A DNA stretch of 64,000 nt, taken from contig OW818666.1 of the NCBI GenBank assembly GCA_942493035.1, positions 3,028,702 through 3,092,701 on the forward strand, read 5' to 3'. Within the stretch, counting starts at the first letter, position 1. Each line of letters starts with the position of its first letter. A model generated the notes under the pieces. It saw nothing but the letters and a program-made list of their open reading frames with translations. It was not told the DNA's origin and searched no databases. The translations under genes and the position numbers were made by a program. This document shows, in pieces, positions 1 to 60,102 of the stretch. Source of the DNA: an uncultured Spirochaetota bacterium. Lineage in GTDB: Bacteria; Spirochaetota; UBA4802; UBA5550.

Positions 1-1926
1 ACCCGAAGTAACAGTCTCCCATAGTACTCTGTATTCATCCCCCTTTAAAAAATCTGATTTTAATATACGGGGATTATTCCCTAGAAGTTCATCTCTTGAA
101 TAACCGGTTGTCTTTTCCGCTGCAGGATTAACATACTGGATTGAACCTTTAGTATCAGTTAAAACAATAGATACAGGACTCTGCTCCACAACATATGATA
201 GAGAGCGGAGTTCAGCCTCAACCAGTTTCCGCTTTGTTATATTTTCATGTGCTACAACAATTCTTATCGCCCCGTTATATTCAAATCTGGTAACGAGCAT
301 ATTGAACCATCGTTTCTCTTCAGGAGAATGGCAGGGGTACTCCAATGAAAACTCCTCCTGCTCACCATTAATAATTGAACGTATCCCCCATGCAACAGTC
401 ATTGCCTCATCAGAATTTGAACCGCCAGATGTCTCACATACTTCAAGATAATTACTCCCCTCATAAGTTGAGGGAATATCCATGGAATTATTTAATGCAA
501 ACTCCCTCCAGGCCCGGTTAACAGCAATTATTACCCCCTCCTCATCAAGAATTGCAATATTGGTAGATAAAGCATCAAGTGTTGCACGCGCAAAGAGCTC
601 TGATTTTTTCAATTCATCTTCAACATGTTTACGTTCTGTAATATCGGTATAAAAATTCATCGTGGCAGGTTTACCATTCCATTCAGTAAGAACAGAATTG
701 ACCTCCACCCATTTGACAACTCCACCGAAGACAACGGCACGAAAGGGATATCTTGTCTCTGAATGTTCCCCGCTGATCCGCTTAATATAATTATTTGTTA
801 CTCTGGTACGGTCATCGGGGTGAATAAAATTTATGAAGGGCCGGCCGGTTATCTCCTCCGCAGTATAGCCGCCGAAGAGTTCAATGGTTTTACTGTTCAT
901 AAATTTAATCACACCATCCTGGGCTATAATAATAGCCTCATTGGCAGTATCGAATATAAGCCTGTAGTTTCTTTCTCTCTCTGCAAGAGCCTCTGCAGAT
1001 CTTTTCTTCCCGGCTATTTCCCATGCCACATCTGCAAAAAAAGAAACAATCTGAATATCGTTTTCTGTATAATATGAACTTTTATTCCCTACACCAAGAA
1101 TCGCGACAATCCTGTCATTGCGGAATATCGGCACCACCAGTTCGCGGATCAGCGGAGCATGTCCGACAGGGAGTCCCTTCCGGTTTGGAAGCGAAGCATA
1201 GTCATTATGGATAACAGATCTGCGCTCACGTACTGCATCACCCCATACTCCGGCATTCTCTATACCGTAATGACTCCCTTTACCTTCAGCATTGCAGTAC
1301 TCTTTCATTGTCCGGGTTGACCAGGCCTGCAGGTGCAGAGTCTTTTCGTCATCACCCACAAAGTGATAGAATCCGATGGGGCTTTCGGATATCTCTGTTA
1401 CTTCGTCGAGAGTTTTCTGAAGCACTTCATCAAGGGAGTGGTTTAACGAATACTCCACAAGCCTGAGCCTTGCCTCAATTATTTTTTCTGATTTTTTATA
1501 ATCTGTAACTTCACTCCTAATTTCACAACGCTTTCCATCTATTTCAAAAAGTTCAAAAGCCGTCTCAATAGCTGACAGCAGCAGCAGATCTCCTGTGTTT
1601 TTGATATAATATCCGTAACGGGTAATACCGCGAATTTTATCCATCGTTTGATTATCAATACCTGAAGCGATAAAAATAACAGGGAGAGTTTTAGAGGCAA
1701 GTATTATCCGTGCGGCTTCCGCACCGTCCATTCCGGAAGAGGAATCTGTATTCATCAATATCAGATTTATGTCATTATTTTCATTGGTGTATTTTACAGC
1801 ATCTTCCGGGTGGGAAACACTTTTTACATAATATCCGGCGTTTTTTAAAACTTCCGTAATTGCCGAATTAGAATCTTTGTTCTCCTCTACAAGAAGTATT
1901 GTTTTACTTAAAGAAGCCTTAGTCAT
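1..1926 (-). CDS. Hybrid signalling protein, N-terminal receiver domain plus multiple PAS domains. Partial: the C-terminus lies beyond the window start.
   Basis: ATG at 1926 on the minus strand. Translation MTKASLSKTILLVEENKD...LILMNTDSSSGMDGAEAA is a CheY-like receiver. Further downstream the DITERK-type PAS linker motifs recur. No stop codon before coordinate 1. Confidence 0.7.
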   Translation of the reverse strand, partial: MTKASLSKTILLVEENKDSNSAITEVLKNAGYYVKSVSHPEDAVKYTNENNDINLILMNTDSSSGMDGAEAARIILASKTLPVIFIASGIDNQTMDKIRGITRYGYYIKNTGDLLLLSAIETAFELFEIDGKRCEIRSEVTDYKKSEKIIEARLRLVEYSLNHSLDEVLQKTLDEVTEISESPIGFYHFVGDDEKTLHLQAWSTRTMKEYCNAEGKGSHYGIENAGVWGDAVRERRSVIHNDYASLPNRKGLPVGHAPLIRELVVPIFRNDRIVAILGVGNKSSYYTENDIQIVSFFADVAWEIAGKKRSAEALAERERNYRLIFDTANEAIIIAQDGVIKFMNSKTIELFGGYTAEEITGRPFINFIHPDDRTRVTNNYIKRISGEHSETRYPFRAVVFGGVVKWVEVNSVLTEWNGKPATMNFYTDITERKHVEDELKKSELFARATLDALSTNIAILDEEGVIIAVNRAWREFALNNSMDIPSTYEGSNYLEVCETSGGSNSDEAMTVAWGIRSIINGEQEEFSLEYPCHSPEEKRWFNMLVTRFEYNGAIRIVVAHENITKRKLVEAELRSLSYVVEQSPVSIVLTDTKGSIQYVNPAAEKTTGYSRDELLGNNPRILKSDFLKGDEYRVLWETVTSG

Positions 1927-6782: not shown

Positions 6783-6853
6783 GTAGAGACGCAGCATTCT
6801 GCGTCTCTACTAAATCCTATAATCCCTTAATCTGCTTAATCCTAATTCAGACA
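6783..6853. repeat. Partial copy of the TGTCTGAAT foldback element family. A 28-bp perfect palindrome is followed by the conserved right arm AAATCCTATAATCCCTTAATCTGCTTAATCCTAATTCAGACA.
   Basis: GTAGAGACGCAGCATTCTGCGTCTCTAC palindrome at 6783-6810. The right-arm TIR supplies the V-stop (GTCTGA) of the kinase gene ending at 6847. Confidence 0.6.
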
Positions 6854-8007: not shown

Positions 8008-8086
8008 ATCATTACCTTTTTGAATTTACTATTTGTCTTCCTTCTCCTCCCCATGTAGAGAAGGAATGAGGTCACGCATCCCATTT

Positions 8087-8215
8087 TGTCTGAATTAGGA
8101 TTTATAGGATTAGCGGATTAAAGGATTTCCATGAAACTGTAGGCTCGTAGCGCGCTACGAGCCTACAGTTTCTAAATCCTATAATCCTCTAATCTGCTTA
8201 ATCCTAATTCAGACA
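8087..8215. repeat. Complete foldback (MITE-like) element. Terminal inverted repeats TGTCTGAATTAGGATT / AATCCTAATTCAGACA with internal TAATCC-type subrepeats and a central 40-bp perfect palindrome (8133-8172).
   Basis: Left arm TGTCTGAATTAGGATTTATAGGATTAGCGGATTAAAGGATTT and right arm are near-reverse-complements. Centre GAAACTGTAGGCTCGTAGCGCGCTACGAGCCTACAGTTTC is perfectly palindromic. The right TIR supplies GTCTGA (Val-stop) of the 8209-11223 kinase. Confidence 0.7.
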
Positions 8216-11223: not shown

Positions 11224-11262
11224 AGTCTAACTTCCCTGTGCAGCTGATCTTTTAATCCTGAT

Positions 11263-12675
11263 TCAGGCATCATTAAACTCCAGTACAAACCGTGTTCCAT
11301 CGATACGGTCAATTCTTATTCTCCCGCTTAACTGCTGGACAAGCATACTTATTAATTCCAGTCCGAATCCTTTTGAGTTTTCAAAATTTACTGAATCAGG
11401 AATACCAACCCCATTGTCCTGTATCACAATATGAGTACGGTTATCATTTCTTGATGCTTCAACAGTTATAATACCGCTGTCTCTACCGACAAACGCGTAC
11501 TTCATAATATTTGTCAGAAGTTCATTTAAAATAATACCAAGAGGGAAAAGTGTCCCTGCGCTCAGTATAAAATCATCAATATTTTTTTCAATTTTCACAA
11601 TCTGTTTGTTCGGGAAATTACTTATAATTTCATCTACCAGCGATGGAAGGTATTCTTTTACAGAGAGTTCTCTGTAATCAGCAGAACGGTAAAGCTTGTC
11701 GTAGAGCACCATCATGCTATCGACACGGTTTTCCGCATCATGAAGAGCTGCAACAGCTGAAGGATCCTTAAGAGTTTCGGACTGAAGAAAAAGAAGACTT
11801 TTAATTGTATTCATATTATTTTTTATACGATGATGGACTTCTTTCAATATCAGTTCTTTTTCAGCAAGTAGTGATTTTATTTTTTCTTCGGCAATTTTAC
11901 GTTCAGTTATGTCCAGGAATGTAACAACTGCACCAACGACTTGACCTTCACGCAATTGCGGATAAGACCAGTATTCAGCAGGAAAAGATGTTCCGTCGGA
12001 ACGCCAGAGCACTTCGTCATCAACATGTGTACCTGAACCCTGTATAAACGCCTGGAATATACGGCAATCTTCAACCGGAAAAAATTTTCCGTCTGAATGC
12101 TTTCCATGTATCTGCCAATGCATATTTTTTCCAAGCAGTTCATCGGGATGTTTATACCGGAGCATTGTCACACATGAATTATTGCAGAATGTGCAGTTAC
12201 CATCCATGTCAATTCCGTATATAGCTTCAGCTGTGGAATTAAGCACGAGATGAATTTTTTCTTCATTCTTTCGCAACGACTCCTCTGCCTCTCTCCGCTT
12301 ATCCTCATTTTCTATCTCTTTATCAACTCTCCGTATAATCTCAGGAAGCAGATCCATAAAATTTTTATCTTTTACAATATAATCCCTGGCTCCGAGCTTC
12401 ATCATATCAACTGCTATCCTCTCATCACCCTGACCCGTAGAGATAATAAATGACGGCAGACTATGCCCGGCCTGCTTCAGTTCTGTAATAAATTCTTTCG
12501 CGTTCATATCCGGAAGTGTGTAATCGAGAAGCATTAAATGCGCGTTATTTACCGAAAGCCAGTCAACAGCCCCACTCCCTGAATTTACAATTGCAGATTC
12601 ATAACCGCACTCTTCTACTTTATCTCTGATCAATTCAGAGAGACCTTCATCATCATCAACAATAAGAATCATCAT
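11263..12675 (-). CDS. Receiver - PAS - HisKA_2 - HATPase hybrid kinase.
   Basis: 470 aa. Receiver MMILIVDDDEGLSELIRDKVEECGY is near-identical to the receiver of the next gene. The PAS domain carries a Cys cluster GNCTFCNNSC. H-box EVHHRIKNNMNTIKSLL. Confidence 0.85.
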   Translation of the reverse strand: MMILIVDDDEGLSELIRDKVEECGYESAIVNSGSGAVDWLSVNNAHLMLLDYTLPDMNAKEFITELKQAGHSLPSFIISTGQGDERIAVDMMKLGARDYIVKDKNFMDLLPEIIRRVDKEIENEDKRREAEESLRKNEEKIHLVLNSTAEAIYGIDMDGNCTFCNNSCVTMLRYKHPDELLGKNMHWQIHGKHSDGKFFPVEDCRIFQAFIQGSGTHVDDEVLWRSDGTSFPAEYWSYPQLREGQVVGAVVTFLDITERKIAEEKIKSLLAEKELILKEVHHRIKNNMNTIKSLLFLQSETLKDPSAVAALHDAENRVDSMMVLYDKLYRSADYRELSVKEYLPSLVDEIISNFPNKQIVKIEKNIDDFILSAGTLFPLGIILNELLTNIMKYAFVGRDSGIITVEASRNDNRTHIVIQDNGVGIPDSVNFENSKGFGLELISMLVQQLSGRIRIDRIDGTRFVLEFNDA

Positions 12676-14620: not shown

Positions 14621-14738
14621 GCCCCCTAAATCCCCCGGAGGGGGACTTCGTAAAATATCGCAAAATTCATTCATTTTTGACATAATTTTTTCAAAACAAT
14701 GTCTTTTAAGTCCCCCTCCGGGGGGTTGGGGGGCTTAG
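14621..14738. repeat. IR-flanked element. CCCCCGGAGGGGGACTT and AAGTCCCCCTCCGGGGG arms flank a 57-bp AT-rich spacer that contains a TTGACA hexamer.
   Basis: Read directly from the sequence. Same architecture as 24837-24939: GC-rich IR arms of the CCCCCGGAGGGGG type flanking a ~56-bp AT-rich spacer. Confidence 0.5.
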
Positions 14739-17689: not shown

Positions 17690-17886
17690 CGGTAGACATT
17701 ATCGATCATTCTGCGTCCCCGCCCCCTCTGGCCCCTGGCCATCTCCCCCTTGATGAGAAGGTGGAGAGAATATAAAATCTTTTCCGTACACCCCTTGCCC
17801 CATCTCATCATGGGCGACGAACAGGATGTTCTAGTGTCGGGTGCGGACAGGACGTCCAAAATGCACCCGACGAAAGGTGCCCGTAG
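17690..17886. repeat. Left part of a GC-rich REP-like composite repeat (family shared with 31596-31940, 32581-32760 and 49135-49215). Truncated by the IS insertion.
   Basis: Contains the CATCTCCCCCTTGATGAGAAGGTGGAGAG module and the 36-nt bulged hairpin 17836-17871, and ends ...CGACGAAAGGTGCCCG. The intact units elsewhere continue GCGGGCGGATAGGGGC, which here resumes at 19341. Confidence 0.6.
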
Positions 17887-17995
17887 GGTTTACTATGCTA
17901 GAACAGAGAGGTTAATTTATTTGAAAATCTAAAAAAGAAGGCTACCTTAGAAGTGCAAAAGAAGTAAAACAAAAATCAACAAAGGAGGTAGCCTT

Positions 17996-19069
17996 ATGAG
18001 TAATTTAATGAACTATATAGTTAAAAACAAGGAAATTTTTATTGGTCTTGAAGATTCTAAAAAGACTTGGAAAGTATGTGTACGAAGCGGAAAAGTAACA
18101 ATTCATGAGGCGAGTATGCCAGCTGAATATGAAGTACTTAAAAACTATTTTAACAACAAATTTGCGGATTGCCTCATACATGTAATGTATGAGGCCGGAT
18201 TTAGGGGATTTGGATTACACGATCAGTTGAAATCTGACGGATATGATTGTATTGTTACGCCTCCACATACTGTAACTCAAGAGAAAACACAACGGCAGAA
18301 AAATGACCGTATAGACTGCCGGAGGCTGGCAAAGAATCTAGAAAGTGGCGATTACCATATCTGCCACGTTCCAGATCGAAAGCGCCGTGAAGACCGCCAG
18401 ATATCACGTTTATATGAGCAATTACAACGCGATATAACAAGGGAATGTAACAGGATCCGAAGGGCATTGGAGTTTCACGGCTTAGACAATCAGTTTCAGG
18501 GAGGCAGTTGGTATCGAACACATTATAAAAAAGCATACGAACGTATTCCCGAGATGGATATTTCTTTATCACTGAAATTTGACTTCAGTATTATGTTCAA
18601 TGAATTGTTTCATCTCTGGGAACTTCAGAAACAGGTGCTGAAAGAAATTCATATATTGGCAAAGTCAGAAGCATACAAAGAAGATGTTGACTTGCTAAAA
18701 AGCGCACCTGGTATCGGTATTCTGACAGCAATCAGACTTGTTCTGGAGTGGGGAAGTCTTGACAGGTTTCACAATAAAGCTGAATTCTCAAGTTTTCTGG
18801 GATTGATCCCAAGTGAATATTCATCAGGTGAAACGGAACGGAAAGGTCATATTACAAAACAGGGAAATAAATTAGTACGGTCATGGCTTGTTGAGTGCGC
18901 ATGGCGAGCATTGAAATATGATCCGGTACTACTGCAAATATTTAATAATGTTGTTAACAGTTCGGGAAGCAGAAAGAAAGCGATTGTTGCAGTTGCAAGA
19001 AAACTGGCTATTCGTTTACGGACTCTGTTAATTCATAGAACACCATATACGGTTGGTTTAGTTCATTGA
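17996..19069 (+). CDS. IS110-family transposase: DEDD RuvC-like N-terminal domain plus Transposase_20 C-terminal domain.
   Basis: 357 aa. N-terminus FIGLEDSKKTWKVCV. C-terminal SFLGLIPSEYSSGETERKGHITKQGNKLVRSWLVECAW motif typical of the IS110/IS116/IS902 family. Strong SD AAAGGAGGT 7 nt upstream. Confidence 0.9.
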   Translation: MSNLMNYIVKNKEIFIGLEDSKKTWKVCVRSGKVTIHEASMPAEYEVLKNYFNNKFADCLIHVMYEAGFRGFGLHDQLKSDGYDCIVTPPHTVTQEKTQRQKNDRIDCRRLAKNLESGDYHICHVPDRKRREDRQISRLYEQLQRDITRECNRIRRALEFHGLDNQFQGGSWYRTHYKKAYERIPEMDISLSLKFDFSIMFNELFHLWELQKQVLKEIHILAKSEAYKEDVDLLKSAPGIGILTAIRLVLEWGSLDRFHNKAEFSSFLGLIPSEYSSGETERKGHITKQGNKLVRSWLVECAWRALKYDPVLLQIFNNVVNSSGSRKKAIVAVARKLAIRLRTLLIHRTPYTVGLVH

Positions 19070-19340
19070 TGTTTAAGGATATTATAACAAACAAGGAGCT
19101 GTACATTACAATGCTTTATTTAACAATTTGGTGCATGATGTCCTATCCGCTGTCCCTTCTGAGGACGTCACAGGGTTTATCAGCACCATTAAAAGCTAAA
19201 GAATAAATAAACTGTACACAAGTACGAATAGCGGCATATAAAGCGTTTTAATTGCAGGCTGCCTGGTTATTAAAAAAAAGGAGCACGCTAAAAGAAAAAA
19301 ATTTAAAAAAAGGTAGCACTTAAATTTGACTTTCTCATAG
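19070..19340 (+). ncRNA. Candidate IS1111-type bridge (guide) RNA region in the 3' non-coding end of the IS.
   Basis: 270-bp non-coding tail. Contains GGTGC-ATGATGT-CCTATCCGC (19130-19150), where CCTATCCGC is the exact reverse complement of the target right-flank GCGGATAGG. Also contains AGGACGTC (19165-19172), identical to the target hairpin loop region at 17849-17856. Inference only. Confidence 0.35.
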
Positions 19341-19368
19341 CGGCGGATAGGGGCGGCGGATAAGGGCG

Positions 19369-20964: not shown

Positions 20965-21002
20965 GAAAAACTCCTTGTACCAAAAAATTCTCTCTATCCT
21001 TT

Positions 21003-21106
21003 TGTCTGAATCAGGATTCATAGGATTTAAAGATTAAAGGATGCGGTAAAATAAAACCCTCTCTAAATCCTATAATCCCTTAATATGCTTAATCCTGATT
21101 CAGACA
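21003..21106. repeat. Foldback element copy with both TIRs: TGTCTGAATCAGGATTCATAGGATTT ... AATCCTGATTCAGACA.
   Basis: The arms are reverse-complementary and flank ATGCGGTAAAATAAAACCCTCTC. The right TIR provides the stop codon (GTCTGA) of the 21100-24774 kinase. The left TIR creates a spurious upstream ATG for the 19369 gene. Confidence 0.65.
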
Positions 21107-24100
21107 ATATCAAACTCCAGCACAAACTTTGTCCCCTCGCCACGCTCTACTCTTATATGACCGCCGATCTGCTCTGTAAGTATACTTACAAGCTGCATAC
21201 CGAAACCCGCCGGTTTATTCTGATCAAAAGATTCAGGGAGTCCTTTACCATTATCCTGAATAACAATAGAAACCTTCCTTCCTGTAAGATTTGCAGATAT
21301 TGTAATCTTACAGCTGCTTCTTCCGCTGAACGCGTACTTCATAGTATTAGTCAGCAGTTCGTTAATAATTATACCTAAAGGCTGAAGAATCTTTACATCC
21401 AGAATAAAATCATCAATCTGCTTCTCAATCTTAACGGACATTTTATCGGGAAAATTTGCCAGAATTTCATCAATCAAAACAGGAAGATAATCTGAAACGG
21501 ACATCTTTTCAAAATCGGGGGAACGGTACAGCTTGTCATAGAGCACCATCATACTGAGAACCCGCCCCTCGGCATCAAACAGTACTTTCTTAATCTCCGG
21601 ATTATCCTGATCCTCACCCTGAATCCGGAGAAGATTTGAAATAGTACCCATGTTGTTCTTAATCCGGTGATGAACCTCTTTCAAAAGGAGTTCTTTTTCA
21701 GAGAGCAGATTTAAAACCTCATCCTCGACCTGTTTTCTCTGGACGATCTTCCACACCGCATCCATCATAAGATTAAGCTGACGGATATCAGATTCACTAT
21801 AATCGGTCTCTTTATTGGCTACACCAACAACTGATACAATATGCTCGTTACTGAATACCGGAATAGTAAGATATTTTTTCAGCGGATTATGCCCTTCCGG
21901 TAATCCTTTTTTATAAATATTCGATGCTTCAAAATCGTTTACCATAATCGGCTGTCTCTGCCGTACGGCTTCACCCCAAAGACCGGTTTTTGACAGCATA
22001 TAAATTGTCTGCTTTTCAACAACAGCACACTGTTTCATAACATCTTTTGACCATGTATTAAGAGAGAACTCCTCTCGATCTTCATCATAGAAATAAATAT
22101 ATCCGATTTTACTTCCGGTAAGTTTAATTGCCTCAGCAAGTGTATAATCGAGCAGATTCTGAATATTATCAGTTGAATGCTGATTAATACTCAGCAGACT
22201 CTCAAGCCGGGCTTCGTCGAGTTTAATCACCTCCTCAGCCTTTATACGGTCAGTAAGGTCAAGACCGCATGAATAATTTTTATCGCCGAGTGTTATATAG
22301 CCCCATGAAATATTTTTCTTCGAGCCGTCTTTACAGTTAACCACAACCTCCATCGGTTCAATCGATGTCTGAGTCTCTATTGCATGTATAACTCTTTCAT
22401 TCCATTCCTCTGAAATCTTTCGGCGATACTCTTCATCGGGATACGCAAGAGGCCACCACTCGGCAACAGAGGGGATATCCTCCATTGTATATCCGAACAA
22501 TTCAACCATTGTGGGATTAACATATTGTGTAACCTGTTCTATTCCGGTTGTGAGATGTATTGCAAGCGGGAGTGTATCGATAATTGCCTTGAATTTCTTT
22601 TCGCTCTCCCGAAGCGCCAGTTCTTTTGTCTGCAGATCTTCAGCAGTGGCAATAAGTTCTTCATTTGCAGCATCGAGCTCTTCCATGGCAGCGGTAAGCT
22701 CTTCGTTCGCCGCCTCCATCTCCTCCAGAGCAGTTTTCAGCTGATCATTTTTTGTCTTAATCTCATCTTCGGCAATTTTACGTTCTGTGATATCCTGAAT
22801 TATACCAACCATTCTCGGGCCATGAAGTGTATCTATGATTTCACCTTTTGCATTAACATATATGACCGTTCCGTCACGATGGATGACGCGATGCTGGACA
22901 TCGTACGGTATCCCTTCTTTTAATGCTCTTTCAATAAACGGGAAGATCAGACCTCCATCTTCCGGATGAACAGAATCTGCAAATGCCTCGAACAACGGTT
23001 TATCAGGATCAATATCGAACATACGGAAAAGTTCATCCGAACCCTCTACATGATTAGTAACAGGATCAAGACTGAAATGCCCGATTTTTCCAATACTTTG
23101 TGCCTTCTTCAGATAAAATTCATTCTGCCTGAGATTCTCACTTGATAACTTACGGTCTGTGATATCTATCTCTATACCATCCCATACCAGCGTATTATCG
23201 GCAAGACGACGCGGCGCCGATGTAATATAAACCCATATTATTTCGCCGGAAGGTTTTCTAATACGGGCCTCTTCAACGAACTGTGTCATATTTAAAATAG
23301 CAGTCTCTTCACGCTCAGCCAGCATTTTCTGATCCTCTTCAACGAACTGGCTATACAGCGCCATGGGGTTCTTCATCACTTCTGACGCAGTAACACCATG
23401 AAGCCGTTCAATTCCGGAACTTAGATAAGTGAATATCCGATCTTTACCATCTTTACCGGTATTAACCTGATATACAAATCCGCCGGGGAGATTATCACTC
23501 AATATTGACAGCTGATTCTGTCTTTCGATAAGAGTCTCTTCTGCCGATTTACGATCAGTTATATCCTCACCGGAACTTAATATTCCTTCAAAACTTCCAT
23601 CGGAATTATATAGAATGGTGTTATGCCAGGCGATTAACCGTTCCTCACCTTTTAATGTTAAAAGTTTATTCTCATAAAACTCTACAGAACGGATCTCACC
23701 AGTCATAATCATTTTAAAAACGTTCTTTATCTCTTCAACCATAGCTCCCGGAATAAAAGTATCAAACCAGTTCAGTCCAAGGATTTCCTCTCTTGAACCA
23801 CCCAGAATTTCACACCCTTTCCGGTTGATCATCTTAATCACTCCATTACAATCAAGAGCCATCATCATAACACCGGCAACTTCGAGATATTTTGCAGCAC
23901 GGTCACGTTCGGAGTTTAATATATTTTCAATCCTTTTAATTTCAGTTAAATCTCTAAACTCAACTGTACGTACCATTTTACCCTTATATGGCACATTTCT
24001 GGCTTCTAAACGAATAGGATATTCCTCTCCATTTTTGCGGACTCCAATCGCTTCATAAGGTTTTTCATAACCGGCTTTGATCTTTTCCAGCACCAGATCG

Positions 24101-24836: not shown

Positions 24837-24939
24837 GCCCCCACACCCCCGGAGGGGGCAAAGCGGAATACTTTAAAAAAACTAATCCCTACTACAATAC
24901 CCATTTATCCATCTTTGCCCCCTCCGGGGGTGCGGGGGC
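24837..24939. repeat. IR-flanked element. 27-bp arms GCCCCCACACCCCCGGAGGGGGCAAAG / CTTTGCCCCCTCCGGGGGTGCGGGGGC (1 mismatch) around a 49-bp AT-rich spacer.
   Basis: Read directly. Same GC-rich IR-arm type and ~50-bp AT-rich-spacer layout as 14621-14738, but with an unrelated spacer sequence. Lies between two kinase genes (stop at 24971, start at 24774). Confidence 0.55.
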
Positions 24940-27364: not shown

Positions 27365-27520
27365 AATGACGTGCTCCCGTATAACTAAACATATAGACCT
27401 CACCCGCTTGCTGCGCACCCTCTCCTCAATGAGAGGTTTTCCGTATTCTAAACTTTCCGCTGCATTAACAAAATAAACCTGTAAAAAATATTTCTTCCAA
27501 ACACAACAGCCCTGTTACAA

Positions 27521-27560
27521 CCTCCCCCTCTCTTTGAGGAGAGGGGGCCGGGGAGAGAGG
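27521..27560. repeat. GC-rich hairpin module CCTCCCCCTCTC-tttgag-GAGAGGGGGCCGGGGAGAGAGG downstream of a kinase stop. Candidate terminator.
   Basis: 8-bp stem CCCCTCTC/GAGAGGGG. Same family as 4576-4621 and 8041-8075. Confidence 0.45.
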
Positions 27561-31549: not shown

Positions 31550-31592
31550 ATCACACGAACGTGTGATTTTTCTATCACACGTTCGTGTGATG
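31550..31592. promoter_or_regulatory. Two tandem 18-bp palindromes, ATCACACGAACGTGTGAT and ATCACACGTTCGTGTGAT, ~80-120 bp upstream of the hybrid kinase start. Operator-like.
   Basis: Read directly. Core ACACG-AA/TT-CGTGT is shared with the palindrome at 2042-2061 upstream of another receiver-PAS gene. Centres are 25 bp apart. Confidence 0.45.
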
Positions 31593-31595
31593 CGG

Positions 31596-31940
31596 GAAAT
31601 CTGCCACCCCGCCCCCACTGTCGCTCCCCCTCTGGCCTCTGGCCATCTCCCCCCTGGTGAAAGGGTGGAGAAAAACGCGGAATGTTTCGTATATTTGTTG
31701 AGACGCAGCATGCTGCGTATCTACAAATATACGTACACCTTTCACCATCTTACCATGGGGAAAGGTGCCTGGCGGGCGGATAGGGGCAGGGCGCCGAAAA
31801 AACACAAAACATTCCGAACTACCCTTTCACCATCTCACCATGGGCGACGAACAGGATGTTCTAGTGTCGAGTGCGTGCAGGACGCACAAATTGCACTCGA
31901 CGAAAGGTGCCCGGCGGGCGGATAGGGGCGAGGCGGGCCA
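31596..31940. repeat. Composite GC-rich REP-like repeat cluster in the divergent intergenic region between the kinase and cheD paralog 2.
   Basis: Contains CATCTCCCCCCTGGTGAAAGGGTGGAG, the ACGCAGCATGCTGCGT palindrome and three CACCATGGGG-GAAAGGTGCC units. Ends GGTGCCCGGCGGGCGGATAGGGGCGAGGCGGG. One unit carries the 36-nt bulged hairpin at 31865-31900. Confidence 0.65.
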
Positions 31941-38295: not shown

Positions 38296-38420
38296 TGAGG
38301 GGTCAGAGCCTCAAACGAAATGTCTGAACCGCAGATTAAGCAGATTTAAGTGATTATGGTGATTTTCATATACGGAATCATAGCTCATCACTAAAATCAC
38401 CGTAAATCTGCGGTTCAGAC
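38296..38420. repeat. Long imperfect palindrome in the divergent promoter region. 16-bp perfect arms GTCTGAACCGCAGATT / AATCTGCGGTTCAGAC with nested GGTGATTTT/AAAATCACC and AGTGAT/ATCACT pairs, plus an upstream TGAGG-GCCTCA hairpin.
   Basis: Read directly. Lies between the start of the 1806-aa kinase (38185, minus) and the outer-membrane candidate (38606, plus). Confidence 0.55.
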
Positions 38421-38605
38421 AGCTGCACACAATGCTCCTTCATAACGTAAAAAATGAAAGTCGCTCTCCGATACCAGGATATACATCAAAACCATTCTAT
38501 AATAGAACAAGTCTATTCCCGCAGTCTTAACAAATCATTAAAAATTTGACTAAACTGAATAATTATATTAAAATAAAATCATCAAAACTAATTAGAGAGG
38601 AATAT

Positions 38606-44507: not shown

Positions 44508-44537
44508 GGTAAGTTATTATATAATAAACAATAAAAG

Positions 44538-44575
44538 CCCCCGCCGGTGTAAACCGGCGGGGGCTTTTTTAGTTT
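44538..44575 (+). terminator. Intrinsic terminator/attenuator: AAAAGCCCCCGCCGG-tgtaaa-CCGGCGGGGGCTTTTTT.
   Basis: 11-bp GC stem followed by a 6-T run, preceded by an A run (potentially bidirectional). Confidence 0.7.
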
Positions 44576-51068: not shown

Positions 51069-51155
51069 TAAATTAATCCCGGCAACATGAATAAAGTATT
51101 ATATAAAAATTGTGACTACTTAGTTATATAAAAGATGCAGAAAATAAGTGAAAAA

Positions 51156-51195
51156 ATATATCTCTCCCCCCGCCTTCGGCGGGGGGAGAGATATA
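51156..51195. repeat. Perfect hairpin ATATATCTCTCCCCCCGCC-ttcg-GGCGGGGGGAGAGATATAT.
   Basis: Read directly. Lies in the divergent intergenic region, so it is not positioned as a terminator. Confidence 0.5.
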
Positions 51196-51347
51196 TTTCC
51201 GTTGATTTTCAAACATAATTTGAAATATAGCTAAGTAGTTACTGAAAATTTAAGATATAATATCTTACTATTTGATACAATAAAATTATTGTCAACAAAT
51301 GTATATTATATAGAATGACTGAAATAGCGTCAGCGATTTATTTTTGA

Positions 51348-52479: not shown

Positions 52480-52512
52480 CTCTCCCCCCCCTTAGTAAAA
52501 GGGGGTTATTTA
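52480..52512 (+). terminator. Terminator hairpin CCCCCCCCTTAG-taaaa-GGGGG after rluD.
   Basis: Shares the loop sequence TAGTAAAA with the ilvB terminator at 46726-46749. Confidence 0.5.
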
Positions 52513-52923
52513 AAACAAAACACTCTCCACTTTCTTATAGATACTTTTTGCAAATTCATAAAAAATTTTAGCGTCTTCAATATCCGGTTTCCCGTTTGGC
52601 ATCAAACCCAAATCTCCCGGGTATCTGGATTCGATGTAGAGCCTGTTCAAACTATCAAGAATATCATCTTCAATAATTTCCAAAAGATCCAATACCTGAC
52701 TTTTCAATAATATTAAGTCATGTTTTTTCGGTATTTTGCGGTTGTTATATTCAAGCATTGCTTTTAGTGATTTTTCTACTGCCTGTTGAGCATGAAAAGC
52801 GACCATATGTGTAAAATAATCATTATGAATTATCTCTTCAATTAACTTCAGATCATCAGACGCAGATTTTAGCCATTCAATTGCCATAGTTTTATTCATA
52901 ATAAAGATATTCCATTTTGACAT
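52510..52923 (-). CDS. hepT: HEPN-domain toxin (HepT-like) of a HEPN/MNT toxin-antitoxin pair.
   Basis: 137 aa. R-x5-H motif (NRKIPKKHD) and ESRYPGD. Overlaps the upstream nucleotidyltransferase gene. Confidence 0.7.
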   Translation of the reverse strand: MSKWNIFIMNKTMAIEWLKSASDDLKLIEEIIHNDYFTHMVAFHAQQAVEKSLKAMLEYNNRKIPKKHDLILLKSQVLDLLEIIEDDILDSLNRLYIESRYPGDLGLMPNGKPDIEDAKIFYEFAKSIYKKVESVLF

Positions 52924-53255
52924 ATCTCTCTGGAAAAAGAACTATCCAATTCTACGAACTTCTGATTCATCTGTTTTGTATGAACAATCAAATCAATAGG
53001 GACTTTACTTCTGATTCTTCTAATCTGCCTTGAAATTTTCAGGTATATTTCGTTTTTTTCACGCCAGTTGTTTGGCATAAAATCATCTTTTGTCACTACA
53101 TATAAATCAATGTCACTGTCGCTATCCGGATTGCCCCATGCATAGCTACCGAAAAGAATAACTTTTTCAGGGTCCATATTTTTCAGTGCTTCGATGATCT
53201 CAGTCCTGATATTGTCAGGTAATTTCATTATTATACCCTTTTTGATTCTTATCAT
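52896..53255 (-). CDS. mntA: Minimal nucleotidyltransferase antitoxin (MntA-like).
   Basis: LFGSYAWGNPDSDSDIDLYVV, the GS-x9-DxD nucleotidyltransferase motif. The start may instead be the internal ATG at 53228. Confidence 0.7.
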   Translation of the reverse strand: MIRIKKGIIMKLPDNIRTEIIEALKNMDPEKVILFGSYAWGNPDSDSDIDLYVVTKDDFMPNNWREKNEIYLKISRQIRRIRSKVPIDLIVHTKQMNQKFVELDSSFSREICQNGISLL

Positions 53256-57523: not shown

Positions 57524-57547
57524 AAAAGCCCCTGCGGGGGGCTTTTG
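57524..57547 (+). terminator. Intrinsic terminator AAAAGCCCC-tgcg-GGGGGCTTTTG.
   Basis: Perfect 8-bp GC stem plus a T run, 75 bp after the stop at 57448. Confidence 0.65.
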
Positions 57548-57839: not shown

Positions 57840-58601
57840 ATGGGGAGAATAATTTCTGTTTCCAATCAGAAAGGTGGTGTTGCAAAAACTACCACAACAG
57901 TAAATGTGGCTGCTTTCCTGGCCGACAAGGGGAAAAAAGTTCTAATTATAGATATAGATCCACAGGGTAATGCCGGTTATGGTATCGGTATAAATGCCGA
58001 GGAGATGCAGACAACTATATACGAAGTTATGATAGGAGAGATTCCTATTGAAGAAGCTATCTTCAAGTCTGACATTGAGGGACTATCGATAATCCCGGCT
58101 AACATACATCTATCCGGTGCACAGGTCGACCTGCTTGACACTGACGAGAAAGAATTTATACTCAAAAAAATTCTGGCTCCTGTAAAGAAGCATTACGACT
58201 ATATATTCATAGATTGTCCCCCTTCCCTGGGAGTACTGACTCTGAACGCCCTGGTCGCGGCTGATACAGTTTTAATTCCGCTTCAGTGCGAGTATTACGC
58301 TCTGGAGGGGATAAGTCAGCTTCTTCGAATTATTGTAATGGTTCAGGAACGGCTCAACAAGTCTCTTAAAATTGAAGGTGTTGTACTTACCATGTATGAT
58401 CCAAGAACAAATCTTGCACAGCAGGTTGTTAATGACGTAAGAGAGTATTTCAAGGAAAAAGTTTTCAAGACAGTAATCCCGCGTAATGTAAAACTATCCG
58501 AAGCTCCATCTTTCGGGAAACCAATTGGACATTATGACAAAACATGTCCCGGAAGTATAGCTTACGAAAAACTCGCTGAAGAGGTAATAAACAATGACTA
58601 A
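57840..58601 (+). CDS. parA: Chromosome-partitioning ATPase ParA/Soj.
   Basis: 253 aa. Deviant Walker A NQKGGVAKTTT. DIDPQGN. Start overlaps parB (58594). Confidence 0.9.
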   Translation: MGRIISVSNQKGGVAKTTTTVNVAAFLADKGKKVLIIDIDPQGNAGYGIGINAEEMQTTIYEVMIGEIPIEEAIFKSDIEGLSIIPANIHLSGAQVDLLDTDEKEFILKKILAPVKKHYDYIFIDCPPSLGVLTLNALVAADTVLIPLQCEYYALEGISQLLRIIVMVQERLNKSLKIEGVVLTMYDPRTNLAQQVVNDVREYFKEKVFKTVIPRNVKLSEAPSFGKPIGHYDKTCPGSIAYEKLAEEVINND

Positions 58602-59478
58602 AAAAGCATTAGGCAAAGGACTCGGAGCTATTATCTCCATGTCCCCCGCATCCGTAGAAGAGATTGAAAACAACGTTGTAAACAATAAAGACAGAATCAG
58701 GGATCTGGATATGTCCAAAATTATCCCTAATCCTGATCAGCCGAGAACATTCTTCGATGAAAATGAAATCACCGGCCTTGCCGAATCTATAAACGCAGTC
58801 GGCATAATCCAGCCTATTATTGTCAGAGAAAAAGACGGGCTCTTCATCATTATAGCAGGTGAAAGAAGATTCAGAGCATGCAAACTCAACGAGATGAAAA
58901 AAATCAAGGGTATTGTAATAGAGGCTGACGAAGAACAGAACTTCTCCATGGCTCTGATAGAAAATATCCAGAGAGAAAATCTTAATGCAATTGAAGAAGC
59001 TAAAGCCTATAAATTGATGATCAACAGATTTAAAATGAAGCAGCAGGATGTGGCAAAGAAAGTAGGTAAAGACAGAACTACTGTAACCAACACCCTCCGC
59101 CTTCTCAACCTTCCGGAAGAGGTGCAGGAGGGGATCATCGATAAAAGAATCAGCGCGGGACACGCAAAGGTTCTTCTCTCTCTTGAAGATCCTGAAAAGC
59201 AGCTTCGTCTATTCAATGATATAGTTGAAAAAGGTCTTTCAGTAAGATCACTTGAACAGATAATTTCACCCGAAAAAAATGAAAACGGCAGTAACGGGAA
59301 AGGCACAGAGCAGAAAGCAGTACAGGCAAAAAGCCCGCAGATAAAAAAGATGGAAGAGGACCTTATAACAAAGCTGGGAACAAAAGTAGAAATCAGACAT
59401 TCAGGAAGCAAAGGAAGAATTGAAATAAGCTACTATTCACTCGATGATTTTGAAAGAATTATGGAGAAGATAAAATAA
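58594..59478 (+). CDS. parB: Chromosome-partitioning protein ParB/Spo0J.
   Basis: 294 aa. IIQPIIVRE...IIAGERRFRA ParB box. HTH region QQDVAKKVGKDRTTVTN. Confidence 0.9.
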   Translation: MTKKALGKGLGAIISMSPASVEEIENNVVNNKDRIRDLDMSKIIPNPDQPRTFFDENEITGLAESINAVGIIQPIIVREKDGLFIIIAGERRFRACKLNEMKKIKGIVIEADEEQNFSMALIENIQRENLNAIEEAKAYKLMINRFKMKQQDVAKKVGKDRTTVTNTLRLLNLPEEVQEGIIDKRISAGHAKVLLSLEDPEKQLRLFNDIVEKGLSVRSLEQIISPEKNENGSNGKGTEQKAVQAKSPQIKKMEEDLITKLGTKVEIRHSGSKGRIEISYYSLDDFERIMEKIK

Positions 59479-59491
59479 TTATGACTTTCGC

Positions 59492-59604
59492 CCGCAGGCT
59501 CTTGTCTTCTGTAGGCTCGTAGCGCGCTACGAGCCTACAGAAGACAAGAGCCTGCGGTTTTAAAATCTTATAATTTCATAATCATGCAAATCTTAATTCA
59601 GACA
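59492..59604. repeat. 66-bp perfect palindrome (59492-59557) followed by a foldback-family right arm AAAATCTTATAATTTCATAATCATGCAAATCTTAATTCAGACA.
   Basis: CCGCAGGCTCTTGTCTTCTGTAGGCTCGTAGCGCGCTACGAGCCTACAGAAGACAAGAGCCTGCGG. The core CTGTAGGCTCGTAGCGCGCTACGAGCCTACAG is identical to the 8133-8172 palindrome. Lies between convergent parB and phosphoesterase genes. Confidence 0.7.
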
Positions 59605-59607
59605 AAT

Positions 59608-60102
59608 CTAAATCTCTTCCAGATCTATCTTCTCCACCCTGCCGGTTTCAATATCCAGAATTGCAATTGAAGATTCATCGTGACCGTAAACTGCACCGGG
59701 ATTAATAATCCTGCATTCATTTGAAACATAATTCTCGAAATGATGTGTATGCCCTTTTATAATATAATCATACTTTCCCGAAGCCACTGCATCTCGATAC
59801 ATCGGGACATCATGTCCATGAAAAACCATAAACTTCTTTCCCGACAATTCAAACTCGGATTTCAAATCCACAGACTTCATTCCGAGTTCATTGGCCTTCA
59901 CATCAATCTCTTCACTGTCAATCAGGTCACCATTCCCAAGAACCAGATAACATTCGAAGTCTTTCAGATAATGAAGCATTCTGGGAGATGTAATATCTCC
60001 AGCATGGATTACAGTTTTAATACCCCTGCTCTGAAAAATGGCAATAGCCTTTTTCGTAGCATCAATATCGTTATGTGTATCAGACATTATACCAATCTGC
60101 AT
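59608..60102 (-). CDS. Metallophosphoesterase, YfcE/MJ0936 family.
   Basis: 164 aa. GIMSDTHND, HAGDI, VLGNGD, GHTH calcineurin-like motifs. Confidence 0.8.
   Translation of the reverse strand: MQIGIMSDTHNDIDATKKAIAIFQSRGIKTVIHAGDITSPRMLHYLKDFECYLVLGNGDLIDSEEIDVKANELGMKSVDLKSEFELSGKKFMVFHGHDVPMYRDAVASGKYDYIIKGHTHHFENYVSNECRIINPGAVYGHDESSIAILDIETGRVEKIDLEEI

Follow-up and report, generated by a model that had tools for sequence, protein, structure and literature searches.

Two perfect palindromes of 40 and 66 bp in a Spirochaetota genome are fresh copies of one GC-rich hairpin module of an intergenic foldback repeat family

The window, a 64-kb stretch of genomic DNA, comes from an uncultured member of the Spirochaetota, and its ParB protein has homologues of 59-96% identity in metagenome-assembled Spirochaetota. 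It carries a perfect palindrome at each of two intergenic sites. Site 1 is flanked by two PAS/HisKA_2 kinase genes on the minus strand, which belong to a cluster that counts at least ten of these paralogues. Here, the palindrome occupies the centre of a 129-bp foldback unit (TGTCTGAATTAGGATT...AATCCTAATTCAGACA) with 86% complementary arms, and the kinase that ends within the terminal TTCAGACA of this unit is the upstream one. Site 2 is a 129-bp spacer between the convergent genes for ParB (58594-59478, plus strand) and a metallophosphoesterase (59608-60102, minus strand), with parA and metG adjoining. The palindrome starts 13 nt past the parB stop codon and is followed by TTTT.

In the longer palindrome, two arms of 33 nt (59492-59524 and 59525-59557) are 100% complementary with a spacer of 0 nt, and the same holds for the 20-nt arms of the shorter one (8133-8152 and 8153-8172). 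No other zero-spacer palindrome longer than 18 bp is present in the window. Both are built on an identical 32-bp core, here called H (Table 1), which occurs exactly twice in the window. Allowing up to three mismatches adds no further copy, neither of H nor of its 14-nt half-arm, and none of 100 dinucleotide-preserving shuffles of the window contains a match to the core. The recurrence of the core thus far exceeds chance. The initial annotation had described perfect palindromes of 40 and 66 bp on one 32-bp core, with outer arms that differ and copies that are each self-complementary end to end, and the arm complementarity and the 32-mer matches confirm this description. The independent symmetry that it read from the two copies holds for their extensions, 4 bp (GAAA/TTTC) at site 1 and 17 bp at site 2, but not for the core: since this is common to both copies, the central symmetry counts as one observation, not two. 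H is intergenic at both sites and has 59% GC, against about 40% for the genome and the window. Predicted folding energies of the palindromes and of the unit at site 1 range from -66 to -80 kcal/mol, with z values between roughly -13 and -15. An assembly artefact was ruled out as the source of H, because an independent short-read metagenome contig (L088) has the same core with one mismatch.

Table 1. Palindromes, foldback arms and sister hairpins in the window, with the corresponding sites in related loci (L numbers)
Feature	Position	Strand	Sequence or remark
Perfect palindrome, 66 bp	59492-59557	.	compound: outer H-like stem, foldback tip and core H; fold -66 kcal/mol, z = -13
Perfect palindrome, 40 bp	8133-8172	.	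core H plus derived 4-bp extension GAAA/TTTC
Core H, 32 bp	59509-59540; same as 8137-8168	.	CTGTAGGCTCGTAGCGCGCTACGAGCCTACAG
Left outer arm, site 2	59492-59508	+	CCGCAGGCTCTTGTCTT = CCGCAGGCTC + TTGTCTT
Right outer arm, site 2	59541-59557	+	AAGACAAGAGCCTGCGG; exact reverse complement of left outer arm
Right arm of foldback unit, site 2	59561-59604	+	TAAAATCTTATAAT...AATTCAGACA; separated from palindrome by TTT
Left arm of foldback unit with H at dyad, site 1	8087-8128	+	whole unit folds at -77 to -80 kcal/mol
Right arm of foldback unit with H at dyad, site 1	8174-8215	+	terminal TTCAGACA contains kinase stop codon (8209-8211, minus strand)
Foldback unit without H	21002-21107	.	usual non-palindromic centre
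Sister hairpin hp2	6783-6810	.	GTAGAGACGCAG-CATT-CTGCGTCTCTAC; one central mismatch; same position, before right arm 6811-6853
Sister hairpin hp2	31688-31733	.	core (31697) with 2 arm mismatches; perfect 9-bp private outer extension CGTATATTT/AAATATACG
Sister hairpin hp2	L092 2067		one mismatch
Sister hairpin hp2	L084 11216; L088 19		degenerate
Site 1, window			left flank CCATGAAA, core CTGTAGGCTCGTAGCGCGCTACGAGCCTACAG, right flank TTTC
Site 1 orthologue	L088 2044-2075		left flank CCATGATT, core CTGTAGGCTCGTAGCGCGCTACGAGCCTATAG, right flank TTTT
Site 1 orthologue	L084 9903-9934		left flank CCATGATT, core CTGCAGGCTCGTAGTGCATTACGAGCCTGCAG, right flank TCTC
parB spacer	L076/L077		93 bp with CCCC..GGGG repeat
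parB spacer	L078; L079		38 and 46 bp, without repeat
parB spacer	L081		full foldback, 145-bp centre
parB spacer	L083		short full foldback, another centre than H
parB spacer	L082		other repeats

The surroundings of both palindromes belong to a family of foldback repeats with the general form TGTCTGAATT(AGGATTnnn)x4 ... AATTCAGACA, in which H sits at the dyad of some units. As the initial annotation had seen, one copy is central to such arms and the other lies beside them: the core at site 1 stands between the two arms, and the palindrome at site 2 precedes a homologue of the right arm, for which no matching left arm is found at that site. The usual centre of a unit is non-palindromic, G(T/C)AG(T/C)AAAAGTAAACCCTCTC, and GC-rich hairpins make up a minority of centres. 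Aligned without gaps, the arms of the family are 42-82% complementary, and each subfamily has matching tips on the left and the right (ATTA, ACCT, ATCA, ACCG). We gathered the syntenic loci of relatives by means of ParB and kinase homologues; genes were listed for about 175 kb of related loci, and repeat searches covered 240 kb of clade DNA. The relatives belong to other species, with ParB proteins 95-99% identical and parB DNA 83-87% identical. Dozens of foldback units populate their kinase clusters, partly as tandem arrays with periods of 67 and 83 bp. The family is concentrated between HisKA_2/PAS kinase paralogues, where its terminal TGTCTGA supplies the kinase stop codon; its sites include 6811-6853, 8087-8215, 11252-11269, 21002-21107 and 38321-38421 in the window, 134-521 and 9161-9832 in L084, and further sites in L089, L092 and L088. 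The units combine TGTCTGAA with four GGATT motifs on each arm, 8-10 bp apart, a helical spacing that suggests a protein-binding array or curved DNA.

H is present at four loci in the 240 kb of clade DNA, and the copies examined in the source genome are the two in the window. A sister hairpin family, hp2, has the consensus GTAGAGACGCAGCA/TGCTGCGTCTCTAC, and all five copies found (5/5) are imperfect. For the copy with a private outer extension at 31688, neither an orthologue nor an empty site was recovered, the region giving paralogous repeat matches only. The imperfection of hp2, together with that of the foldback arms, implies that no general process keeps palindromes perfect in this clade.

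In wider collections, an 18-mer arm of H gave four single-strand chance matches in 185,579 species genomes, none of them from the clade or with an adjacent second arm. A 16-mer gave 71 single-strand matches in a metagenome collection, none from the clade or paired, a weak negative given that this collection evidently does not include L088, which has the exact 16-mer. No copy of H was found in viral contigs and plasmids. One match, in L062 (67% GC), places the same 19 nt in an unrelated long hairpin and was judged a chance 16-mer match in the repeat of another organism. Its sequence (1385-1475, minus strand) reads CTGTAGGCTCGTAGCGCGC...GCGCGCTACGAGCC-ACAG within an intergenic hairpin of about 90 nt, and its flank ACGTCCCTGTAGGCTCGTAGCG recurs in L048, a contig of 71% GC, at about 790-810. 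This likeness is probably due to chance, and less probably to convergence or transfer. Other repeats share the intergenic spacers. Further hairpin families, of the forms CCCC..CCGGAGGGGG.. and CCCTCTCC..GGAGAGGG, lie at 14623-14733, 24837-24939, 27415-27548 and 8038-8066 in the window, at 10938-10975 in L076 and at 629-660 in L092, and in L076 the parB spacer is taken up by one of them in place of the 66-bp palindrome of the window. Upstream of response-regulator/CheD genes, the window (31550-31591, 2041-2062) and relatives (L084, 12914-12952) share conserved palindromes that resemble operators, (A)TCACACGAACGTGTGAT, and are in some cases doubled.

At site 1, orthologues of H are found at the same place in the foldback unit of L088 (31/32 identical to the window core) and L084 (27/32), whereas L089-L091 have an ordinary centre instead. 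The flanking kinase genes share 78-81% DNA identity with those of the relatives. The site-1 copy is thus an old resident, and because its orthologues differ by one and five bases while the two window copies are 32/32 identical, the second copy must be recent. Each of the two orthologues has one G:T mismatch, on the same strand, and flanks without complementarity. Since the other copies of H are imperfect, perfect symmetry belongs to two very recent copies and not to the family. The initial annotation had proposed that mismatched arms in most other copies would speak against a process of arm regeneration, and outside the window this is largely what is seen, with H mismatched and its flanks unextended in L088 and L084.

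The site-1 orthologues also give a direction to the shorter extension. Next to H, the window reads CCATGAAA (GAAA), where L088, L084 and the family consensus have CCATGATT (GATT). The GAAA of the window is consequently derived, and the adjacent change of TT to AA has made the left flank complementary to TTTC on the right. It is a clustered change that raises complementarity over the ancestral state, as expected for a template switch, and it bears the classical signature of templated quasipalindrome correction (PMC8794818, PMC7202029). Of the five core substitutions that separate L084 from the window, four combine into two compensated pairs (T:A to C:G and C:G to T:A). The probability of at least two such pairs among five substitutions is 0.002 for random changes and 0.017 if only transitions are considered. 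One of these pairs (alignment columns 23/26) falls inside the 4-nt loop of the predicted hairpin, so that stem stability cannot account for it. This pair is suggestive of symmetry at the level of DNA, but it could also result from two C-to-T changes at a GCGC hot spot. Between species whose kinase DNA is 78-81% identical, identities of 31/32 and 27/32 place H well beyond the neutral expectation for intergenic DNA. A conservation of 97% next to coding DNA with 78% identity suggests either constraint or active spread, and a passive model leaves it unexplained.

At site 2, the outer arms are made of parts of the family and not of arbitrary sequence, which makes the 66-bp copy a compound palindrome. 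The CCGCAGGCTC of the left outer arm is identical to the H stem of L084, CTGCAGGCTC, in 9/10 positions, and the TTGTCT that follows equals the tip seen in the terminal repeat of foldback units. The partner of this repeat, AATTCAGACAA, is found at the end of the right arm (59594-59605). On the other side, GAGCCTGCGG-TTT-TAAAATC at the junction corresponds to GAGCCTACAG-TTTC-TAAATCC, the canonical arrangement at site 1. No other copy of the 17-nt outer arm occurs in the 240 kb of clade sequence. The spacer between parB and the metallophosphoesterase gene differs in every relative examined (Table 1); it is hypervariable, and the 66-bp palindrome is specific to the lineage. The 17-bp mirror is exact. 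Neither an ancestor nor an empty site of the 66-bp copy was found among the relatives, which have diverged by 13-17% in parB DNA, so that the direction of the event is inferred. Homology of the flanks in the window and L081 (CGCCCG[C/T]AG, then TTGTCT) had indicated an ancestral left arm; this was down-weighted, as the parB DNA is only 87% identical. Upstream, a HEPN/nucleotidyltransferase pair resembling a toxin-antitoxin system (52510-53255) is inserted in the otherwise syntenic housekeeping region, and it is absent from this place in L076, L078 and L079.

The position of both copies downstream of stop codons raises the possibility that they are selected RNA hairpins, either terminators or stabilisers of mRNA 3' ends, whose pairing is kept by purifying and compensatory selection without any copying process. 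Their extreme stability, the compensated pairs and the G:T nature of both single mismatches in relatives, on one strand, fit this explanation, as does the position of the 66-bp stem 13 nt behind parB in a convergent spacer and ahead of TTTT. Yet a terminator scan calls neither site: there is only TTTT on the plus strand at site 2 and no tract at site 1, while the clear terminators of the window (44533-44568, 51154-51198, 57524-57546) have A- and T-tracts on both sides. In addition, H is missing from most foldback units and from most parB spacers of the relatives, RNA pairing is impossible for one compensated pair and for the GCGC palindrome at the centre, which are part of the loop, and a stem of 33 bp is far longer than termination requires. 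Rfam and tRNA scans gave no match. As a full account of the symmetry, selection on an RNA hairpin is therefore improbable, albeit the least so among the readings that compete with the one we prefer. A role in ending transcripts at site 2, with UUUU after the stem, is plausible from the sequence. If transcribed, the module would form a very stable hairpin able to stop or stabilise transcripts, a role that is likely a by-product.

Symmetry that is exact through the dyad, including the loop positions (columns 23/26 and 24/25), would also be expected of a double-stranded site for a dimeric protein, be it an operator, a partition-related site, a restriction/modification site or a target of the telomere-resolvase type. 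The 66-bp copy adjoins parAB, and some resolvase targets have centres like the alternating GCGCGC of H. The evidence from the loci makes such a protein-imposed symmetry very improbable: a search for parS gave no credible match, the palindrome is absent from the parB spacer of every relative examined so that partition does not need it, the other copy sits within a repeat unit between kinase genes, and no resolvase-like or regulator gene is associated with the palindrome. Indeed, no resolvase gene is present in the window or among the listed genes of the related loci. Telomere-resolvase and integron attC sites were both rejected for want of an associated gene or a defining motif.

We propose instead that H is a small GC-rich, REP-like palindromic module, which some units of an abundant, non-coding foldback family of MITE/BIME type carry at their dyad. 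This is the best explanation overall, and we regard it as reasonably probable. The core at 59509-59540 would be a very recent copy of H from site 1 or of a common master copy, and the symmetry of both copies would reflect their recency combined with a one-step, mirror-generating event at a perfect palindrome. Two routes to the 66-bp palindrome can be envisaged. In the first, short-range intrastrand template switching during replication, the nascent strand would have copied ...CCGCAGGCTC-TTGTCTT-H, folded back on H and then copied its own 5' flank for 17 nt (AAGACAA GAGCCTGCGG). It would have returned to the template by re-annealing through the homeology of GAGCCTGCGG with GAGCCTACAG, the right end of H (8/10 positions), to continue with TTT-TAAAATC. 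The same kind of event, over 2 nt, would have turned GATT into GAAA at site 1. Template switching is known to create and extend perfect stems (PMC8794818), and quasipalindrome mutations of this origin are well documented (PMC8794818, PMC7202029, PMC13100816). This route reproduces the sequence exactly, explains why the palindrome ends at the limit of the H-like stem, and fits the perfect outer and imperfect inner arms of the hp2 copy at 31688; it requires an ancestor in which CCGCAGGCTC already stood 7 nt upstream of H.

In the second route, H with 7-nt foldback tips would have entered an older H-like hairpin precisely at its dyad. REPs nested in long 'target palindromes' are known (PMC3733652, section 7), and since the outer arms consist of an H-like stem and a foldback tip, such an insertion into an existing palindrome accounts for the symmetry and needs no regeneration. 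The 34-bp H-like palindrome that this needs, CCGCAGGCTCTTGTCTTAAGACAAGAGCCTGCGG, is seen nowhere. We tentatively favour template switching, with nested insertion as the somewhat less likely of the two. Simple decay of an ancestral repeat, which the initial annotation had held unable to give such symmetry, indeed fails for the exactly mirrored 17-bp outer arms. Its proposal of a process that regenerates one arm from the other finds support in this mirror, in the derived 4-bp extension and in the two compensated pairs, but no pervasive process is visible.

The same annotation had pointed to a hairpin-processing enzyme of the IS200/IS605 or TnpA(Y1)/RAYT type. Accordingly, a Y1 HUH transposase encoded elsewhere might cut H at GTAG and re-insert it in hairpin loops, as in REP/RAYT or IS200/IS605 systems, and insertion at hairpin apices would give nesting as well as symmetry. 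H and hp2 both start with GTAG and end with CTAC, are GC-rich, 28-32 bp long and extragenic, and the largest REP superfamily is tagged by GTAG, where RAYT cuts (PMC3733652, PMC3479197). Both window copies are central in palindromic flanks (GAAA^TTTC and GTCTT^AAGAC), and between species H has diverged far less than the genes next to it, as expected of a sequence recognised by an enzyme. On the other hand, the tag of canonical GTAG REPs is unpaired and at one end only (PMC3733652), while that of H is paired and mirrored, and with two copies in 64 kb and four loci in 240 kb of clade DNA H is very rare. A gene search of the 47 ORFs scanned in the window found no Y1_Tnp domain, nor did the listed genes of the roughly 175 kb of related loci contain one. 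The window has neither tnpA(Y1) nor tnpB, and the structure is fully symmetric in place of the asymmetric, subterminal imperfect hairpins of IS200/IS605. Propagation by such a transposase is thus unlikely. Slightly less likely again is an undescribed, still active palindrome-propagating system of this clade, in which recognition would act on DNA, on a loop-less palindrome with a GTAG tag at either end. H would be inserted at the dyads of other palindromes, or grow outwards from them, to give nested perfect palindromes, driven by an enzyme, RAYT-like or otherwise able to process hairpins, whose gene would lie outside the window. Recognition at the level of DNA would explain the 97% conservation of H next to 78% in genes. 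The sole transposase of the window is of the IS110 family (DEDD_Tnp_IS110 and Transposase_20; ORF 17996-19069, element 17870-19356). This element is inserted in another intergenic repeat, between GAAAGGTGCCCG and GCGGCGGATAGGGGCGG, of which an intact version lies at about 31905-31935, and its ends are unrelated to those of the foldback unit.

The preferred reading, a REP-like module within a MITE/BIME-like family, relates the palindromes to several known systems. GTAG REPs within 'target palindromes' (Di Nocera, De Gregorio and Rocco, 2013; PMC3733652) are likewise short GC-rich extragenic palindromes with a GTAG head that lie between unidirectional and convergent genes, fall into subfamilies whose stems show complementary changes as well as G:T pairs, and are sometimes central in longer AT-rich palindromic repeats. 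With 32 bp and 59% GC, H falls among GC-rich extragenic palindromes of 20-40 bp. In contrast, its GTAG (8139, 59511) is paired with CTAC inside the stem and so is no unpaired tag, and its stem of 14-16 bp lacks an asymmetric loop, where 6-9 bp and a loop are usual. The low apparent copy number of H and the lack of a RAYT in the window also set it apart. The copy number of REPs is usually above 100 per genome. The survey of GTAG REPs holds no reports from Spirochaetes (PMC3733652). The flanks of site 1, TATAGGATT...CATGAAA[H]TTTCTAAATCCTATA (8105-8185), resemble a long target palindrome of Anabaena variabilis, TATAGGA...TGAAA--TTTCA...TCCTATA, which holds GTAG-15 REP dimers (PMC3733652); this may be a coincidence in AT-rich DNA.

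With BIMEs, Neisseria intergenic mosaic elements and REPINs, the foldback family shares mosaic intergenic arrays of a few short modules in alternating orientation, long hairpins, strain variation and occasional tandem reiteration. It differs in that its modules are unrelated in sequence, its arms carry GGATT every 8-10 bp and its arrays concentrate between HisKA_2 kinase paralogues. As in MITEs such as Correia elements, the units are non-coding foldbacks that measure about 105-130 bp and carry inverted repeats at their termini (TGTCTGAA...TTCAGACA), have subfamilies with matching left and right tips, and overlap gene ends. Terminal repeats of the MITE kind (TGTCTGAATTAGGATT/AATCCTAATTCAGACA; 20 full units listed) belong to the foldback unit and not to H itself. 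Unlike MITEs, the family forms tandem arrays of half units and shows no cognate transposase, and no direct repeat that could be a target-site duplication flanks 8087-8215, 21002-21107 or the units of relatives. Quasipalindrome template-switch mutations of the Ripley model (PMC7202029, PMC8794818, PMC13100816), finally, share with the present case a change of several nucleotides by which an inverted repeat becomes perfect (TT to AA) and a stem extended outwards by a reverse-complement copy of the flank. They have usually been documented in reporter genes or rRNA stems, whereas here the mutation would concern a mobile-looking repeat module and is not polarised by a close ancestor.

In summary, the two palindromes are a local example of known mosaic repeats of the REP/MITE type, with a symmetry of the kind that template switching gives; they are no evidence of a new system for regenerating arms. 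The locus offers a clean natural example of one-step palindrome lengthening, from 32 to 40 and to 66 bp, and for one of the two events outgroup sequences give the direction. Bacteria do not normally maintain long loop-less palindromes stably. Should many copies with private extensions exist in the source genome, it would lend itself well to studies of how palindromes grow and are tolerated in bacteria. The present evidence adds to known classes of repeats without revealing a new mechanism, and a REP/BIME-like mosaic repeat system is now documented in a poorly studied spirochaete lineage.
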